A stretch of DNA of 64,000 nucleotides from IMG/VR virus record IMGVR_UViG_3300044814_000107, positions 3,224-67,223 of that record; one strand, written 5' to 3'. The notes below the pieces were generated by a model. It worked only from the letters and a program-made list of their open reading frames with translations. It searched no databases and had not been told where the DNA came from. Position numbers and translations under genes: made by a program. Shown in pieces: positions 2,502 to 56,616 of the stretch (its first letter is position 1; the number at the start of each line of letters is the position of its first letter). The stretch comes from a virus (taxonomy: Duplodnaviria > Heunggongvirae > Uroviricota > Caudoviricetes).

Positions 2502-3158
2502 CTACGTGACCGGGAAGGTCTGGTAGCCGCAGGCGGCGTCGGGAATCGAGTCGGTGAGGAACCCGCCTCCGAGCTGCTTCGCCTCCTCCGGCAGGTCTCC
2601 GAAGATCCCGAGGCCCCACTCGCTGTTACCGCGAGAGAAGCCGCTCATCTTCGGCTGGTTGAAGTCGTTCTGGAGCGTGTCGGCCCCGACCGACCAGAAC
2701 GAGGACGGCCAGATCCAGTGGACGAACGGGAACGTCGCGTCCTGCCGGTCCTCGTTCCATCCCGTCTGCCAGCCCTCGAAGCAGACGTTCGGCTGCGCCG
2801 CGACGGAACAGTCGAAGGCGTTGTCGTTGAACCAGTGCCCGATCAGGTCACCGCCCGACAGGATCGCGGACGACCCGGTGAGCATCTCGAACAGGCCCCA
2901 CTCGAGCGCCGCGAGGTCGAGCTCGAAGTCGAACCGCTTCAGCTTGTCGAAGCCGCGGTACGTGGCGATGATGCAGTCGCAGCCGCCGATCAGGTCGGAG
3001 TCCTTGCCCGCGACGTACACGGGGGTGACGCCGAGCTGGATCGGCTTGTCCGAGACGTAGACGTTGTTCGGCCCGCTCATCGGCGAGCCGTCGTCGTTCA
3101 GACGGGTTGCCCTTACGCGGCACAAATGGATGGCCGCGAGGCACTCGTTTACAGCCAT
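2502..3158 (-). CDS. hypothetical virion-associated protein
   Basis: An AGGAGGTAAAGCG sequence lies 5' of the ATG at 3158. The 218-aa product is Trp-rich and protein-like. Confidence 0.6.
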   Translation of the reverse strand: MAVNECLAAIHLCRVRATRLNDDGSPMSGPNNVYVSDKPIQLGVTPVYVAGKDSDLIGGCDCIIATYRGFDKLKRFDFELDLAALEWGLFEMLTGSSAILSGGDLIGHWFNDNAFDCSVAAQPNVCFEGWQTGWNEDRQDATFPFVHWIWPSSFWSVGADTLQNDFNQPKMSGFSRGNSEWGLGIFGDLPEEAKQLGGGFLTDSIPDAACGYQTFPVT

Positions 3159-50948: not shown

Positions 50949-51929
50949 TCAGAACGCGACGAGCGGCTCGAAGATCGGCAGCGACTCCTGGTTCGCCTCG
51001 TCCCCAGCAGCAGCGACGTTCTTCACGGCCTGCCGGTAGTAGCTCGGCTTCAACTCGACGCCGATCCCGAAGCGGCCGTTCTGGACGGCCGAGTAGACCT
51101 CCGACCCGACCCCCATGAATGGCGTCAAGACTCGCTCGCCGGGATTCGACCAGAGCACTACAGCCCGGTCGATCACGTCGAGTTGGAGCGGATGAACGTG
51201 CTTCTCGTCCTCGTCGTCGCGGGCCTCACGGAACGGGAGCACACGGTCGAGCCGCACGTCGTCCCAGAACGCGGATGCGTACTGTCGCCAGATCCAGTGC
51301 GAGTAGCGGTTCTCGGTCTGCTTGCCGTCGTAGCCGCGGTAGCGGAGCAGGTCCTCGGGGATAGATCGTTCGCCGGCGTAGTCCAGTAGGCCGTTCGGGT
51401 GTTCCACCGGGACGGGGTTTTCGCCGGCGCTGCGGAAGACGAGGAGGTAGTCGGCCGAGGCGACCGAGCAGCGCGTCGCGTCCTCGACGACTGTCCGGTG
51501 CGTGAGTCCCTTCACCATCGTCCGGTTGCGAACGGTGAGCGGCTCCTTCCAGACGTGGTAGCGGGCGACGTAGTCGAACCCGAGCTCGCGGTGGAGGCGG
51601 ATGATGTCGCCAGGGAAGTCCGTCAGGCCGTCGCCCTTGCCGGTGTTCCCGGTCGGCACGTCCATGCAGTGAACGCAGCTCATCCGACCCGGCATCGTCG
51701 CGCGACCGATCTCCTCAACAAAGAAGCGGTAGTGGTCGAAGAACTCGTCGTAGTCGCGGCTGTTCGAGAGATCCCGCTCGCTCGACGTGTACTGGTAGAG
51801 ACCCGCGAACGGCGGCGAGTAGATCGACAAATGGATCGACCCGTCAGGCAGAGACGGCATAACCTCCATCGCATCGCCGCAGTAGAGGGCGTATCGCTCG
51901 GTGAGCGTCTGGTCTACGACTTGAGCCAT
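50949..51929 (-). CDS. DNA methyltransferase (beta-class N6A/N4C; motif IV SPPF)
   Basis: Track ORF 50949..52367, trimmed to MAQVVDQTL. Motif IV (IYSPPFAG) precedes a C-terminal motif I (VLTPFMGVGSEVYSAVQNGRFGIGVEL), which is the permuted beta-class order. Confidence 0.75.
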   Translation of the reverse strand: MAQVVDQTLTERYALYCGDAMEVMPSLPDGSIHLSIYSPPFAGLYQYTSSERDLSNSRDYDEFFDHYRFFVEEIGRATMPGRMSCVHCMDVPTGNTGKGDGLTDFPGDIIRLHRELGFDYVARYHVWKEPLTVRNRTMVKGLTHRTVVEDATRCSVASADYLLVFRSAGENPVPVEHPNGLLDYAGERSIPEDLLRYRGYDGKQTENRYSHWIWRQYASAFWDDVRLDRVLPFREARDDEDEKHVHPLQLDVIDRAVVLWSNPGERVLTPFMGVGSEVYSAVQNGRFGIGVELKPSYYRQAVKNVAAAGDEANQESLPIFEPLVAF

Positions 51930-53317
51930 GCGGGTACCTCCATCGTGGTCTCGTAGGTTTGGGAGCGGGCGACATCGGTGGCGTCTCGCATGTGCGAGAC
52001 GAGAGCGTCGAACATCCGGTCGGCCTGCGCCGCCTTCCGCTCGAGGCTCCGTAGCGTCGACTCGCCGCCCGTCGTCGTGATGACATCGACGCGGACGGGG
52101 CGCGTCTGGCCGAACCGCCAGCTCCGGCGTACGGCTTGGTAGAACTGCTCGTAGGAGTGGTTCGGGAAGTACGTCATCCGGGCGCAGTGCTGCCAGTTCA
52201 AACCCCACGCTCCGATCGCGGGCTTTGTAACGAGAACGCGGATCTCGCCCCGCCCGAACGCGGCCAGCTTCTCCTCCTTCGCGTCGAGCGAATCGGCGCC
52301 CGAGACCTGGACTGCCCCGTCGATGAGCCGCGAGAGCAGGTCTCCCTCGTCGTTTAGCTGACACCACGCGACTCCGCTGTCGGCGCCTGCGAGCAGCTCG
52401 GCCGCGCGGTCGCAGCGCTCCTCGAGCGTCCGTCGCGCCTCCTCGCGCTCCTCGTTCAGACCTTGCGCCGGCAGATCGAAGAGTTGCCCCTCCCGCGGCC
52501 TGTTCGCGGCGATGATGTGGTCTACCTGCTCAAGTGGGGGAAGTACGAACTGGTCATCGGAGTAGCCGAGATCCGACGGCTTCCGCATCGACCGCGCCCA
52601 CGACGCGACCCAGCGCCAGAACGGGTCCTCAGCGTGGCCCTTGAAGCGCCAGTTCTCGCCGCCACGCGGACGCCACCGGCCACCCATCGACTGAGAGGTC
52701 TTCTCCTTGTTCGTGAAGAACCGAGAGAGCATGTCCATGTGGCCGAGATAGCCAAGCGCCTCGCTCGACGTACCGAGCTCGATGTAGTCGTTCGGCGCAG
52801 CCGTAGCGGTACAGAGAAGGCGGTAGGGAGTCTTGCGGACGAACTCAGTCACGGCCTGTCGGCGCACCCCGTCGAACGCCTTGATCGCGCTCGACTCATC
52901 GCAGACCACCGCTCCGAAGTCGCCCCGGTCGAATAGGTGAAGACGCTCGTAGTTCGCAACTGTGATTCCGGCTGCGATCTTCCCGTCGCGAGAGACAGCC
53001 GCCTCGATCCCGAACTTCTCTGCTTCCCCCTCGGTCTGGTATCCGACGGCGAGAGGCGTCAAAAGGAGAACGGGTTTCCCAGTCGCGCGGCGGGCGTTCT
53101 CTGCCCAGACGAGCTGCATCGGCGTCTTGCCGAGTCCGCAGTCAGCGAAGATCGCTGCTCGGCCCCGAGATACAGCCCACCTTACGAGGTCAGCCTGGAA
53201 GGGGTAGAGGAAGTCGGGCATCCACTCCGGGTCGAAGCCGCTCGCGGCGTCGAGTTGCGTCTTCCTCTCAAGGAAGTCGAGGTAGGTCGCGATCTCCTTC
53301 TGGGACGAGGACGCCAT
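51914..53317 (-). CDS. SF2 helicase-domain protein (possible partner of the methyltransferase)
   Basis: Motif I (ADCGLGKT), motif II (VCDESS), a TAT motif and a helicase-C motif (WRFGQTRPV) are present. The ATG lies 3 nt after the CTACGGTCGTAG motif. The 3' end overlaps the methyltransferase start. Confidence 0.7.
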   Translation of the reverse strand: MASSSQKEIATYLDFLERKTQLDAASGFDPEWMPDFLYPFQADLVRWAVSRGRAAIFADCGLGKTPMQLVWAENARRATGKPVLLLTPLAVGYQTEGEAEKFGIEAAVSRDGKIAAGITVANYERLHLFDRGDFGAVVCDESSAIKAFDGVRRQAVTEFVRKTPYRLLCTATAAPNDYIELGTSSEALGYLGHMDMLSRFFTNKEKTSQSMGGRWRPRGGENWRFKGHAEDPFWRWVASWARSMRKPSDLGYSDDQFVLPPLEQVDHIIAANRPREGQLFDLPAQGLNEEREEARRTLEERCDRAAELLAGADSGVAWCQLNDEGDLLSRLIDGAVQVSGADSLDAKEEKLAAFGRGEIRVLVTKPAIGAWGLNWQHCARMTYFPNHSYEQFYQAVRRSWRFGQTRPVRVDVITTTGGESTLRSLERKAAQADRMFDALVSHMRDATDVARSQTYETTMEVPAWLKS

Positions 53318-54038: not shown

Positions 54039-55979
54039 TCAGAGAACCCCCGTCAGAGTCAGTCGGCCTAGCCACAACCCTACTTGCTCCGAGACCTGAA
54101 CCTGAACGGAGTTCCCGAGGATGCGGAGTTGAGCCGTCCGCGGGATGTCGACGTCGCTGACCCAGCCCGCGGGGAAGCCGAGCATCCACTCGACGAAGGC
54201 TGGGGCTAGTCGTCCCTGTTCGTCGGTAGGAGCGGGAGCTGGCCGTCCGAGGATTCGCTCCCATCGGTCGACGGCGGGTCCGTAGACGCCCCATTCGACG
54301 TTTCCTCGTTCACCGCGCTCGAGAGCGTCGGACCGCCCGTCCCGAACCTCTGCCCCTTGCTCCCCTTCTCCCCGTCGGAGCTCATCGGGGTCGGCAGCAG
54401 CTTCTTCGTCCTGCCCCGGTTCGGCCGGCCCATCGTGTCCGTCCCCGTCTCGTTTCTGCGGCTCTCGCCGTGCGTCAGCGCCGCCCGCAGTTCGCCTCCC
54501 GCGCCCGGGTTCTCCTCGTTCGCGACCGGCGTCGGCAACAGGGTCGGCTGCTCGCCCTCCTGCGTGAACGGCGTTTCGGAGATCGTCTCGCGCATCGAGA
54601 TCGCCGTCCCGAGCGGCAGAGTCGCCTTCTGGCCCGACGGTCGGCGTCCCGACTGCGACATCGCGCCCCTCTCCTGCCTGCCCCCGTCCCCGTCCGCAGC
54701 CTGCGGCGTCGGCAGCAGCCGCGGCGTCCTCGAGTCGCCTGTCTGGATCGCGTCCGTCAGGCTCACCCCCGAATGCGCCCTCGACCCCTCCAGATTCCGT
54801 GAGCCGCTCGCCTCCGAGTCCCCCGCCGTCGGCGTCGGAAGGAGTTTCCCGTCCACCTGCTGACGGCGAATCTCCGGTCCCAGTAGTCGACGGAACCCGT
54901 CCGGCCTCTCTCCGTCGCCGCCCGTCTGCGCCGTCGGGGTCGGTAGTAGTTTCCCCACGGCCGCGTCCGCCGCAATGAGGTTCAGCGGTGGCGAGTTCCT
55001 CTCCCGCTGCGACGGCCCCGCCGTGTTCTCGCCGTCCTGCGTCGTCGGCGTCGGCAGCAGCCGGTCTACCTCCCGAAGGCTCGGCCCCCCGTCCCTCGTC
55101 TCGCCGTCCGTCAGGCCCCGGCTGTCCGAGACGACCGGCGTCGGCAGCAGCCTTACCTCGGCCGCGATCGCGTCCGGCAGTTCGACCGATCGCTTCCCGC
55201 GCGTCCCCTCGTGCTCCCTCGACGCCGCCCGCTCCGGATCCGCCATCGAGTTCTCCGGCCTCCGACCCAGCCACGCGCCCGGCGTCGGCAGCAGATCCTC
55301 CTCGCCCTTCGGGAGGAGCGCCGGGACCGTCCTCGAGAGCGTCCGCTGCGTCATCCACTTCCGGCCCGGCAGCCACAGCCGGTGAAGCGGATCGTCCGGA
55401 TCCAGGTGCGTCCGGAACTCCTCGAGGAACTCCCCCGTCGGCGTCGACTCCTGCGCCGACGGGGTCGGCAGAAGGAAGTCGGGCGATGAGGAACCATCGG
55501 TCTCGGCCGTGAGGCGCTCCGACATCGGCAGCTCGCAGGCAGTCGTAGGCCCACCGATAGCCGAGCGCGGCCAGGTCGGCGCAGACCACTCCGAGAGCAG
55601 ATTCTCCTGCATCGAGGCGTAGGCCGGCCGCTGTTCGGATTCCGGGGACGTTCTCGAGGACGACGTAGCGGGGACGAAGCGCGCGAAGGGCGTCGGCGAC
55701 TCCGAACCAGACCTGGCCGTGGTCGCCCTCGATCCCGGCTCGGCGCCCGGCGAGGCTGTAGTCGGGGCAGGGGAACCCGGCGGCGAGGAGATCGACTCGC
55801 TCGACGGTGGACCAATCTCGAAAGAGGTCTCCATGATTCGGTACTCCAGGGTAGTGGGTTTCGAGGACGGTGGCCGCGGCCGGGTCGGGCTCCGCGAACC
55901 ACGCCCACTGGATGCCGAGCGCCTGCTCGAGGCCGAGGTCGAGACCACCGCCTCCCGAGCAGAGCGACCCGCCGATCAT
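54039..55979 (-). CDS. Dcm-like DNA cytosine-5 methyltransferase with an aberrant ~1-kb variable region
   Basis: Motif I (LCSGGGGLDLGL), motif IV (FPCPDYS), motif VI (ENVPG), motif VIII (HGRDRWFLIA), motif IX (FVEWMLGFP) and motif X (GNSVQVQ) are all in this frame. The intervening ~330 codons are low-complexity Gly/Arg/Asp/Ala-rich. In the +1 frame (track ORF 54206..55948) the same DNA encodes at least 10 LLPTP repeats. Confidence 0.55.
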   Translation of the reverse strand: MIGGSLCSGGGGLDLGLEQALGIQWAWFAEPDPAAATVLETHYPGVPNHGDLFRDWSTVERVDLLAAGFPCPDYSLAGRRAGIEGDHGQVWFGVADALRALRPRYVVLENVPGIRTAAGLRLDAGESALGVVCADLAALGYRWAYDCLRAADVGAPHGRDRWFLIARLPSADPVGAGVDADGGVPRGVPDAPGSGRSASPAVAAGPEVDDAADALEDGPGAPPEGRGGSAADAGRVAGSEAGELDGGSGAGGVEGARGDAREAIGRTAGRDRGRGKAAADAGRLGQPGPDGRRDEGRGAEPSGGRPAAADADDAGRREHGGAVAAGEELATAEPHCGGRGRGETTTDPDGADGRRRREAGRVPSTTGTGDSPSAGGRETPSDADGGGLGGERLTESGGVEGAFGGEPDGRDPDRRLEDAAAAADAAGCGRGRGQAGEGRDVAVGTPTVGPEGDSAARDGDLDARDDLRNAVHAGGRAADPVADAGRERGEPGRGRRTAGGADARREPQKRDGDGHDGPAEPGQDEEAAADPDELRRGEGEQGAEVRDGRSDALERGERGNVEWGVYGPAVDRWERILGRPAPAPTDEQGRLAPAFVEWMLGFPAGWVSDVDIPRTAQLRILGNSVQVQVSEQVGLWLGRLTLTGVL

Positions 55980-56220
55980 CGCGCGGAGAGAGGGATCTGG
56001 AACGGGGAGTCTGGCGGCGACGTGAACGCGGGTTCGCCGACGATCTCGGTTCGTTCCTCGTCGGAGAGCAGACGGGCGTCGAAGCAGACCTTGACCTCGT
56101 GGAGGACGCAGAGTTCGTGGGCGATCTTGCTCTTCTCGATCCCTGCGGCATCAGCTTCGGCCATCATCAAGCGGACGAGAGCCGTCTCCTCCTCCGTGTA
56201 TTCAGCGACTCGGCCGCTGT
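55976..56220 (-). CDS. hypothetical small protein
   Basis: This is the C-terminal ~80 codons of track ORF 55976..56557, from the GTG (VEIEFPKDSG) that lies about 25 nt downstream of the CTACGACCGTAG motif. Confidence 0.35.
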
Positions 56221-56274
56221 CCTTAGGGAACTCGATCTCCACGAAGGGGTGACCGTAGCCGCCTTCTCGGACGG

Positions 56275-56286
56275 CTACGGTCGTAG
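56275..56286 (-). promoter_or_regulatory. CTACGACCGTAG motif, about 25 nt 5' of the GTG of 55976..56220
   Basis: Exact 12-mer, with a half-site (gaccgtagcc) 15 nt away. Confidence 0.45.
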
Positions 56287-56289
56287 GAC

Positions 56290-56616
56290 TTACAGCGACG
56301 ACGGGCTTGCGCCGGCGACGGCCATCGCGCGGCGAACCCCGCCGATCATCGCCAGCGTGCGAGCTTCGATGCCGAACGCCCGCTCGAGCTGGAGCGAGAG
56401 GTGGTAGAGCCTGCGCCCGAGCCGCCGGTCGAGGTCGGAGGCGTAGGCTCCGGTCGAGTCGTATTCGATCTCGACCATCTTCGCCCAGAACGCGGCGAAG
56501 CGATCCCAGTCGAAGTGGACTCCTTCGTTCTCGACGTACTCCTCGCAGCGGGCGCACCCGTCGACGAGGAACTCGTCGCGCTCGTCCGGGCTCGGGTGGG
56601 CGATGTGGGTCGTCAC
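56290..56616 (-). CDS. hypothetical protein
   Basis: The GTG start (VTTHIAHP) overlaps the upstream stop (GTGA). The sequence is protein-like. Confidence 0.45.
   Translation of the reverse strand: MTTHIAHPSPDERDEFLVDGCARCEEYVENEGVHFDWDRFAAFWAKMVEIEYDSTGAYASDLDRRLGRRLYHLSLQLERAFGIEARTLAMIGGVRRAMAVAGASPSSL

Follow-up and report, generated by a model that had tools for sequence, protein, structure and literature searches.

How can a DNA (cytosine-5) methyltransferase be produced from a locus that carries its catalytic motifs in one reading frame and an array of repeats, resembling a recognition region, in another? The question is raised by the open reading frame (ORF) 54039..55979 on the minus strand of the 64,000-nucleotide stretch of DNA from a virus of the Caudoviricetes; this whole stretch is referred to below as the window. 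A first-pass annotation, made from the sequence alone, had described this two-frame layout and listed four possible causes, namely programmed frameshifting, a recently decayed pseudogene, sequencing indels in homopolymers and an overlapping embedded gene. The last of these is the best-supported reading: from the comparisons described below, we regard it as probable that the locus specifies a two-polypeptide DNA (cytosine-5) methyltransferase encoded by two fully overlapping genes, which we call alpha (frame A) and beta (frame B, +1 to alpha). A megablast search of the locus against the GenBank phages gave no match; an exact-sequence query with the gene call P0001 yielded no contig, and scanning viral, metagenome and genome contig collections with the N-domain brought up no identical locus.

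The alpha ORF (54039..55979, minus strand) encodes 646 amino acids organised as a catalytic N-domain, a filler and a C-terminal module, and its start ATG overlaps the stop codon of the upstream ORF (ATGA). Amino acids 5-168 match PF00145 (E 1.5e-34). As initially described, motifs I, IV, VI, VIII, IX and X of the C5 methyltransferases all occur in frame A, in the canonical order. The N-terminal catalytic domain (55482..55979, minus strand; aa 1-166) carries motif I LCSGGGGLD (55964-55938), motif IV GFPCPDYS (55778-55755), motif VI LENVPG (55658-55641) and motif VIII PHGRDRWF (55514-55491), and it is 57-81% identical to the N-domains of nine relatives (L001-L009). The C-terminal module (54042..54302, minus strand) comprises the WGVYGPAVDRWE helix, motif IX FVEWMLGFPAGW (54197-54162) and motif X LGNSVQV (54119-54099), and is 60-74% identical to the C-modules of relatives. 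In a PDB sequence search, the in-frame homologue P0039 matched the chains of M.HhaI and M.HaeIII. The TRD expected between motifs VIII and IX of the same polypeptide was not found in alpha, the cassettes that occupy this place being in frame B. Their frame-A reading is the alpha filler (54303..55481, minus strand), about 390 residues that are predicted to be disordered and whose composition over the 392 residues that separate the two groups of motifs (22% G, 18% A, 13% R, 12% D) agrees with the description of this ~1 kb as Gly/Arg/Asp/Ala filler. In the AlphaFold2 model of alpha, residues 1-170 and 560-646 form a confident core (pLDDT 92-98), and residues 175-550 a disordered insert (pLDDT 30-46).

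Read in frame B, the same DNA encodes nine LLPTP cassettes of 30-60 amino acids each (U1-U9; 54302..55474, minus strand), whose units start at 55474, 55294, 55150, 55060, 54949, 54844, 54718, 54541 and 54400. The DNA pattern CTNCTNCCNACNCC occurs eight times in the window, for 0.2 expected, and all eight occurrences lie within 54387-55474 on the minus strand, in a single frame. At least ten repeats had been announced; nine of them stand, and the tenth turned out to be an LLPTN in the tail of the ORF, where frame B is the +1 reading of the C-module. For all cassettes other than U5, other proteins contain orthologous cassettes that differ in their ordinal position. U5 looks degenerate and has an odd GC-by-position profile. 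We considered it as a frame-C relic and rejected the idea, since its frame-C translation matches a known cassette over seven residues only and frame B matches better. Local in-and-out frame switches within the array occur in P0004 and P0012. In short relatives, one to three such units make up the whole interval between motifs VIII and IX, and in single-frame relatives the same cassettes are part of a single methyltransferase chain, flanked by its motifs VIII and IX. From such comparisons of sequence, we infer that the LLPTP cassettes are tandem target-recognition modules. The PDB sequence search gave no alignment between the cassette region and solved TRDs, and in the AlphaFold2 model of P0065 only the first unit reached moderate confidence, the later cassettes being of low confidence.

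Across this middle region, frame B is the frame under purifying selection, in agreement with the earlier impression that the repeat-containing frame is the selected one. First, its GC content by codon position is 0.68/0.58/0.90. Second, the nucleotide differences from relatives number 29/19/77 at frame-B positions 1/2/3. Third, the amino-acid identity to relatives is 0.78-0.85 in frame B versus 0.46-0.59 for the same DNA read in frame A, the alpha filler thus not being conserved as a protein.

The two frames meet at two junctions, close to the positions (around 55450 and around 54250) where the frame transitions had been expected. At junction 1 (55470..55490, minus strand; offset +1), RWFLIA, where the conserved N-terminal part of alpha ends, meets DFLLPTP of the first cassette, with the transition at 55482/55480; at junction 2 (54296..54310, minus strand; offset -1), the end of U9, SSAVNEE, meets NVEWGVY, where the alpha C-module starts, with the transition at about 54302. 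The statement that the gene needs two frame changes holds if a single polypeptide is required; such a requirement does not follow, because two-subunit C5 methyltransferases are known (PMC2836561, PMC3404938).

Programmed recoding, with a +1 shift after motif VIII and a -1 shift before the C-module, would turn the locus into one canonical methyltransferase. This single-chain product would be the simplest protein, and the correspondingly repaired chimera aligns end to end with homologues that use a single frame, among them P0009, P0013 and that of Mycobacterium phage Filuzino (98-100% coverage). Furthermore, the offset is always +1 and always lies between motif VIII and the first cassette, as conserved frameshift sites behave. 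The junctions themselves argue against it. In nine loci compared, the interval from RWF.VA to LLPTP spans 2-14 codons, is variable in both sequence and length, and contains no common slippery motif; the candidate GCC-C-GAC of the window (a Ty3-like slippery site or hungry codon) was rejected, being absent from the relatives. No consistent zero-frame stop that might stimulate shifting was found near junction 1, the first frame-A stop after it ranging in position from 16 codons to none. Junction 2, which reads GAG GAA ACG, lacks an X XXY YYZ heptamer, and folding of the RNA that follows either junction is no more stable than that of shuffled sequences (z about -1.0, similar to the -0.2 of a control segment).

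Three other features, which recoding leaves unexplained, lead us to favour overlapping genes over frameshifting. First, frame A lacks stops. Over the embedded ORF of the window we counted 0 frame-A stops, for 4.5-5.4 expected from codon shuffles (P 0.002-0.004), a single-locus P that is softer than it appears because the codon-shuffle null overestimates frame-A stops about two-fold, as judged on loci where frame A need not stay open. None of the 30 loci that have motif X in frame 0 behind a +1 region has a frame-0 stop, versus about 106 expected in total from the same type of shuffles (Fisher p 3e-26). Relatives with the C-module in frame B have 1-7 frame-A stops. Second, the beta frame is open far upstream of the junction, for 108-190 codons in the four measurable loci (GC 0.42-0.59), and low-GC (42%) phages have a Shine-Dalgarno motif and an ATG at least 100 codons upstream. 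Third, synonymous sites appear constrained over the last 60 codons of the N-domain. The GC3 of alpha drops from 0.81 to 0.68 over the beta head in the window, and it is 0.63-0.73 over these 60 codons versus 0.81-0.91 upstream in 7 of the 10 shifted loci examined. The exceptions are L001, L009 and L016, which start from a low upstream GC3 and show no drop; in the in-frame relative L010, GC3 stays at 0.97 in that stretch. Similarly, the fraction of synonymous differences (frame A) in the window's clade is 0.20 over the beta head versus 0.40 upstream. The possibility that the beta head is out-of-frame noise was discarded, as both the GC3 and the synonymous-site tests argue for constraint. Taking both sides together, we consider recoding unlikely.

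Returning to the overlapping genes, the beta ORF (54206..55834, minus strand; the corresponding frame-B entry of the ORF list is 54206..55948) would encode 542 amino acids from the ATG at 55834, arranged as a head, the nine cassettes and a tail. It lies wholly within alpha (55834..54206 inside 55979..54039), in the +1 frame, and the JGI gene call P0001 is identical to it across 439 amino acids. The beta head (55475..55834, minus strand) is dual-coded with alpha motifs IV-VIII, and its conserved part, MQENLLSEWSAPTWPRSAIGGPTTACELPMSERLTAETDGSSSPDF, occupies about 55606..55475 (minus strand). Of all parts of beta, the start codon is the one assigned with least certainty. The candidate ATG at 55834 (minus strand) opens a METS sequence common to P0122 and L001 and is preceded, 9 nt upstream, by a putative Shine-Dalgarno motif, GGAG (55844..55847, minus strand). 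This GGAG-9 nt-ATG arrangement (55847-55832), which also occurs in L001 and P0122, is weak as a Shine-Dalgarno signal; its GGAG is encoded by the rare alpha codons CCT GGA GTA (P-G-V), and L020 has AGGAG from the same alpha position (P-G-V), 15 nt upstream of its beta ATG. Two alternative starts on the minus strand are the ATG at 55606 (MQENLL; alpha codon 125), which has no Shine-Dalgarno-like motif, and the ATG at 55519 (MSERLT; alpha codon 154), chosen by the JGI gene caller for P0001. The start position is not conserved in the window's clade, with candidates at alpha columns 49, 62, 85-88 and 125. In other relatives the start signals are clear, a Shine-Dalgarno motif preceding an ATG as GAGGAG-8 nt-ATG (L033), GGGAGGTG-10-ATG (Paenibacillus phage Jacopo), GAGGAAG-9-ATG (Salmonella phage SEN4) and GGGAGGGG-5-ATG (L037). 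At the other end, the beta tail (54206..54301, minus strand), which reads TSNGASTDPPSTDGSESSDGQLPLLPTNRDD and then stops, is the +1 reading of the start of the alpha C-module. Its TAG stop arises from the alpha codons CGA CTA (R-L), and L004, L005, L037, L038 and L016 have their beta stop at that alpha position too. Elsewhere in the window, the ORFs 50949..52367 and 51914..53317 were considered as another nested pair and set aside, since they overlap only because the downstream methylase ORF is extended upstream.

The comparison with the methyltransferases of related phages, recommended in the first-pass annotation, was performed on 52 distinct loci that were found by N-domain similarity, have a placeable motif IX and are not phylogenetically independent. 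The recognition units and motif IX are in +1 and motif X is in frame 0 in 26 of the 52 loci (GC 0.34-0.69). The window's type, with units in +1 and both IX and X in frame 0, accounts for 9/52; units, IX and X are all in +1 in 6/52, and a single frame holds everything in 5/52. Two loci are mixed, and four, in which motif X was not found, are incompletely classed, three of them having IX in +1. No locus among the 52 has its units in +2 relative to the N-domain, two of them showing a single stray motif match there. Altogether, the recognition region is +1 to the catalytic N-domain in about 90% of the classifiable relatives, which include cultured phages of Arthrobacter, Gordonia, Paenibacillus and Salmonella. 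In Paenibacillus phage Jacopo, gp57 is nested in gp56 at +1 and both are annotated as DNA methyltransferase; a published comparison of Paenibacillus phages lists two cytosine methyltransferase genes, with no remark on nesting (PMC6070908). Arthrobacter phage PrincessTrina (gp81/gp82) and Gordonia phage Upyo (gp54/gp53) have the corresponding regions annotated as two genes with an offset of +1, and gp42 of Salmonella phage SEN4 contains an unannotated +1 ORF of 282 codons. Like the window, Jacopo, PrincessTrina and Upyo have an offset of +1 from the N-domain to the (L/W)PTP units; unlike the window and its nine cassettes, they have 1-6 units, and their beta carries motif IX (Jacopo) or IX-X (PrincessTrina and Upyo). 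L010 has a non-overlapping head, for which we considered an origin by frame-shifted duplication of the 3' end of the N-domain; this proposal is unsupported, the -1 reading having no similarity to the N-domain. The census also bears on recoding: as relatives return to frame 0 before IX, between IX and X, or not at all, recoding would need several independent -1 sites.

Could the window instead hold a dead or dying copy of a gene whose two-frame layout is genuine in the family? Starting from an M.AquI-like ancestor with two ORFs, of the kind seen in L001, a one-base change near 54302 might have separated motifs IX-X, the long frame A then being a by-product of high GC content. L001, the closest N-domain relative (81% identity), does have its C-module in frame B, the high GC3 of frame B makes frame-A stops rare, and the degenerate look of U5 and the frame switches in the arrays of P0004 and P0012 point in the same direction. 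However, L001 has 7 frame-A stops over the stretch where the window has none, for about 5 expected, and the cassettes and both catalytic ends of the window are intact and under purifying selection. Moreover, nine loci share the layout, the five closest with the same beta stop, and the eight besides the window, which include the diverged L004/5, L037, L038, L041, L011 and L016, all keep frame A open. A recently decayed pseudogene, as had been envisaged, is on these grounds improbable.

Beta might also be an independent protein, for example a DNA-binding or anti-restriction protein, leaving alpha devoid of a recognition domain and either inactive or non-specific. We found no Pfam family for beta, and many of those inspected among the 1252 cluster representatives that match it in public data were called as stand-alone ORFs. 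Against this, the single-frame relatives join the same cassettes to the catalytic motifs in one chain, and every beta in the loci examined accompanied an alpha N-domain, which makes this explanation very improbable. Finally, two compensating indels, one inserted and one deleted base at the short A run of junction 2 (GAGGAAACG) and the CCC of junction 1, would restore a single frame, but sequencing indels in homopolymers are excluded because independent assemblies from JGI, Logan and ENA, made in different projects, show the same offsets, as do the finished genomes of cultured phages. The identity of the JGI gene call P0001 over 439 amino acids also speaks against an artefact, which is hardly conceivable.

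According to the two-gene reading that we favour, both polypeptides would be translated in this phage. Alpha would provide the catalytic core, with motifs I-VIII at its N-terminus and IX-X at its C-terminus. The roughly 390 disordered and unconstrained residues that join them would have no other reason to exist than the need for frame A to read through the embedded gene. Beta (~540 amino acids) would initiate inside alpha and would consist of the dual-coded head followed by nine different LLPTP cassettes. By analogy with M.EcoHK31I and M.AquI, the two chains would associate non-covalently, though the docking of the window's beta on alpha is less obvious than that of their counterparts because it lacks motif IX. 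The cassette array may allow one catalytic core to methylate several targets, and the phage DNA would therefore be protected from several host restriction systems. More tentatively, and as a proposal about which we are rather evenly divided with some leaning to doubt, a 1.6-kb gene nested at +1 in another could be translated together with it, the inner gene encoding a detachable nine-cassette specificity subunit and the outer one a tethered catalytic core, whose tether is constrained only to lack stops.

Should both products be made, long nested genes could be maintained in phages, with one frame selected for its sequence and the other for its openness, and few fully nested gene pairs as long as this one would be known from viruses of bacteria. 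A large number of phage methyltransferase genes would then carry a wrong annotation, appearing either as one gene whose low-complexity middle is unexplained or as a truncated methylase next to a 'hypothetical protein'. The two-subunit C5 methyltransferases would grow from M.EcoHK31I and M.AquI to a large phage family, and the +1 lock between catalytic domain and recognition region would be ancient and phage-wide, with M.EcoHK31I as its only studied example. The association of one catalytic core with swappable recognition cassettes would make a natural modular scaffold, which bears on the simultaneous evasion of many restriction systems by phages and on the engineering of targeted DNA methylation, a purpose for which M.EcoHK31I has already been used (PMC2836561). 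A separate specificity subunit of this kind would be the C5-methyltransferase counterpart to that of the Type I systems.

To our knowledge, the nested two-gene layout has so far been demonstrated for one C5 methyltransferase only, M.EcoHK31I. [quoted passage not shown] Compared with this published description, the window has the same C5 methyltransferase layout with beta nested in alpha in another frame, and the 26 relatives whose nested +1 ORF includes motif IX, X being in frame 0, match the M.EcoHK31I split. The window itself departs from it, with motifs IX and X both in frame A, a beta devoid of any catalytic motif, a beta of ~540 amino acids with nine cassettes where that of M.EcoHK31I is small, and an alpha with a disordered read-through of ~390 residues.

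M.AquI of Agmenellum quadruplicatum (CYCGRG; Karreman & de Waard 1990) has, in the account given within PMC3404938, two subunits split in the variable region, the larger with motifs I-VIII and the smaller with IX-X. That detached parts can work together is also indicated by the fragments of M.BspRI, M.BsuRI, M.HhaI and M.SssI, which complement each other (PMC2836561, PMC3404938). L001, L003, L006, L008, PrincessTrina (gp81/82) and Upyo (gp54/53) have IX-X in the second ORF, as in M.AquI. Unlike M.AquI, the window has motifs IX-X back in the alpha frame, and its beta, which covers the first 31 codons of the C-module out of frame and then stops, is a nested rather than a downstream partner.

The term multispecific has been applied to C5 methyltransferases (PMC8936443). 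The window's array can be set beside those of phage enzymes of this kind. In work from the Trautner laboratory, the enzymes of the Bacillus phages SPR, phi3T, rho11s and H2 were reportedly found to carry tandem TRDs between motifs VIII and IX, each responsible for one specificity. These enzymes are single polypeptides with 3-4 domains. The nine cassettes of the window differ from one another, and eight have orthologues that change places among relatives; unlike the Bacillus phage enzymes, the window would carry its putative recognition cassettes on a separate, nested ORF.

The minus-strand locus combines two overlapping reading frames. ORF A (alpha; 54039..55979, 646 aa, frame A) starts with a C5 DNA methyltransferase domain (the N-domain; PF00145 match at aa 5-168, E 1.5e-34) possessing motifs I, IV, VI and VIII, and is closed by a C-terminal module (C-module) of the usual kind (WGVYGPAVDRWE; motif IX, FVEWMLGFPAGW; motif X, LGNSVQV). 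The 392 residues in between comprise 22% Gly, 18% Ala, 13% Arg and 12% Asp. In the AlphaFold2 prediction (alignment of 52 homologues), where residues 1-170 and 560-646 have a pLDDT of 92-98 and residues 175-550 a pLDDT of 30-46, alpha is modelled as a normal catalytic core carrying a long disordered insert. The start codon of alpha and the TGA that ends the upstream ORF 55976..56557 overlap as ATGA (55976-55979, minus strand), which suggests translational coupling inside a minus-strand operon.

ORF B (beta; 55834..54206, minus strand, 542 aa) is nested in alpha in the +1 frame (frame B). Its nine cassettes (U1-U9) lie between a head that is dual-coded with alpha and a 31-residue tail, which is a mere +1 reading of the WGVY..GRL segment of alpha. 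The start of beta is most plausibly ATG 55834, which is common to the relatives L001 and P0122 and lies 9 nt 3' of a candidate GGAG spelled by rare alpha codons (CCT GGA GTA); the later ATG 55606 and ATG 55519 are possible starts. The stop (TAG, 54208-54206) occupies an identical position relative to the alpha codons in L004, L005, L037, L038 and L016. The cassettes carry nine LLPTP units, 30-60 residues apart, and the 64-kb window has eight matches to the back-translated pattern CTNCTNCCNACNCC (0.2 expected), every one of them between 54387 and 55474 on the minus strand.

By the GC content at each codon position (frame B GC3 of 0.90), it is frame B that codes between ~55480 and ~54300. Nucleotide differences with three relatives fall mostly on frame-B third positions (29/19/77 at positions 1/2/3), and the amino-acid identity of the same DNA is 0.78-0.85 when read in B versus 0.46-0.59 when read in A. 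Hence, from the frame mapping, the GC by position and the comparison with relatives, the first-pass annotation was correct in placing the repeats in another frame than the catalytic motifs and in regarding the repeat frame as the selected one, with two small adjustments: the real units are nine instead of at least ten, the tenth being the LLPTN of the tail, and the two frame switches, put at ~55450 and ~54250, occur at 55482/55480 (junction 1) and ~54302 (junction 2).

A search with a chimera joining the N-domain, the cassettes and the C-module in one frame matched full-length single-frame homologues, such as P0009 and that of Mycobacterium phage Filuzino, and many plain frame-B gene calls. 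We mapped the frames on the DNA of ten relatives from this search, nine of them close (N-domain 57-81% identical). The comparison with related phages, which the first-pass annotation had recommended, placed the first LLPTP units +1 to the N-domain in all nine close relatives. The return to frame 0 varies: it never occurs in L001, L003, L006 and L008, follows two or three units in L007 and L009, and just precedes the C-module, as in the window, in L004 and L005. A census of loci collected by N-domain similarity from viral, metagenomic and genomic contigs gave 52 distinct loci where motif IX could be placed (GC 0.34-0.73). The units and motif IX are in +1 and motif X in frame 0 in 26 loci; nine are of the window's type; in six, +1 holds the units and both motifs; five use one frame throughout; two are mixed, and four, where motif X was not found, are not fully classified (IX in +1 in three). 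The units are in +2 in none of the 52 loci, two of which have a single stray motif match there. At 1.63 kb, the window beta exceeds every other nested ORF measured in the 30 loci of the nested and window types. The offset is also present in finished genomes of cultured phages, where it is annotated as two methylase genes in +1 (Arthrobacter phage PrincessTrina gp81/gp82, Gordonia phage Upyo gp54/gp53) or as a gene wholly within another in the +1 frame (Paenibacillus phage Jacopo gp57 in gp56), or is left unannotated (a 282-codon +1 ORF within Salmonella phage SEN4 gp42). The two-frame layout is neither an artefact nor a private accident; the observation is genuine and applies more widely than could be seen from the window.

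Gene callers have deposited both frame readings as proteins. Apparent conserved motifs in L020, L032, L033, L137, L139 and public protein databases generally are frame-shifted readings of each other: F(L/P)AS..V.PGSEEA..T.TSG of beta ORFs is the +1 reading of GFPCQPHS.AGKR.G, and EP..GRV..G...RVDRL of small alpha ORFs the -1 reading of P.WVEWLMG.P.GWTDL. L006 (JGI contig Ga0616346_0011782) carries at 2537-3051, between motifs VI and VII of the N-domain, a 513-nt insertion encoding a single-motif LAGLIDADG homing endonuclease (YAAGLVDGEGCLYI), which is read in the +1 frame as an uninterrupted part of the beta ORF (P0010); frame A is open across it too.

We propose that the locus is probably a nested two-gene methyltransferase: alpha would form the catalytic core and contain a read-through linker, and beta would be a recognition subunit with several cassettes; both frames would be translated, the subunits would associate and the cassettes would confer specificity. 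The alternative that double programmed frameshifting joins the frames into one protein is unlikely, from the following lines of evidence. First, a double frameshift does not require an open frame A, yet frame 0 is stop-free across the +1 region in 30/30 loci with motif X (with or without IX) in frame 0 behind it, whereas ~106 stops in total are expected when the codons of the embedded ORF are shuffled (Fisher p 3e-26; this null is apparently about two-fold too high, and the 30 loci are related to one another). Relatives needing no frame A past motif VIII have 1-7 stops there. This openness is decisive across the family and suggestive for the window taken alone (0 stops versus 4.5-5.4 expected). 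Second, in the four phages (42-59% GC) that allowed this distance to be measured, frame B stays open for 108-190 codons 5' of the junction, which cannot be chance, and its starts have good initiation signals: GAGGAG-8 nt-ATG (L033), GGGAGGTG-10-ATG (Jacopo), GAGGAAG-9-ATG (SEN4) and, in the high-GC L037, GGGAGGGG-5-ATG, spelled by a run of rare alpha codons. Third, the last ~60 N-domain codons bear dual-coding signatures in the window's clade: of the ten shifted loci examined, seven have an alpha GC3 of 0.63-0.73 there, down from 0.81-0.91 upstream (L001, L009 and L016, where upstream GC3 is already low, show no fall), synonymous differences among identical residues fall from 0.40 to 0.20, and GC3 stays at 0.97 in the in-frame relative L010. 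Fourth, junction 1 (RWF.VA to LLPTP) varies in sequence and length among relatives, which share neither a slippery motif nor a nearby stop there, junction 2 lacks a -1 heptamer, and the RNA 3' of both folds no better than shuffles. An 11-bp hairpin (CCCCGUCGGCG / CGCCGACGGGG; 55429-55463, minus strand) stands just 3' of junction 1, arising from the U1 codons for PSA and TPTG; its segment has a folding z of -1.0, no better than shuffles.

Recent inactivation of this copy of a two-ORF enzyme is improbable to much the same degree as frameshifting, and a separate function of beta alone appears quite improbable. That the locus is an artefact is barely credible.

Regarding the cassettes of the proposed recognition subunit, all but U5 have clear counterparts at other ordinal positions in other proteins (U2 at unit 2/6, 5/10 or 3/9; U4 at unit 3/9, 6/7 or 8/10), and the TTQD..GPSQ..RNS.PLN type is found even in the 62%-GC nested locus L059. 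The array is therefore a set of shuffled modules. The target-recognition domain of C5 methyltransferases sits between motifs VIII and IX. As short relatives have nothing but 1-3 cassette-type units in that place, the cassettes are probably recognition modules. AlphaFold2 placed the first unit alone, with moderate confidence, in the in-frame homologue P0065, and a PDB sequence search gave no match to the cassette region. Among 120 homologues, no cassette closely resembles U5 (LLPTPTAQTGGDGERPDGFRRLLGPEIRRQQVDGK; 54845-54949, minus strand), which has an atypical GC profile (maximum at frame-B position 1) and a weak match to the TAEDGERGQ..GPSLRGAV cassette; U5 may be a decaying module. In L007 (P0004), L008 (P0012) and L009 (P0003), single cassettes within one ORF leave the cassette frame for the Gly/Asp/Ala filler frame and then return; such compensating changes seem to be tolerated.

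The window belongs to a phage (large terminase, portal, helicases). Directly downstream of the locus, on the minus strand, stand a DPPY-motif ORF (53359 to ~54036; no Pfam or PHROG match), a SNF2-like helicase (51914..53317) and an N6_N4 DNA methylase (50949..51911; PF01555). With the locus itself, the PF01555 methylase and the DPPY-motif ORF, this phage has at least two, probably three, side-by-side DNA methyltransferases.

Two natural two-polypeptide C5 methyltransferases have been described, M.AquI and M.EcoHK31I (PMC2836561, PMC3404938). M.AquI has motifs I-VIII on alpha and IX-X on beta (PMC3404938); in M.EcoHK31I, the beta gene lies wholly inside the alpha gene in another frame, both chains are needed, and internal Met codons of beta are usable as starts (PMC2836561, PMC3404938). 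Complementation also occurs between detached fragments of monomeric C5 methyltransferases (PMC3404938). In the literature searched, without claim to completeness, we came across no account of this arrangement as something general among phage methyltransferases. The M.EcoHK31I layout (motif IX on the nested ORF and X in frame 0), likened by the published description of the enzyme, is the commonest in our census; that of M.AquI is found in six relatives. The window differs from both as a third form, with motifs IX and X both on alpha and a beta made purely of head and cassettes.
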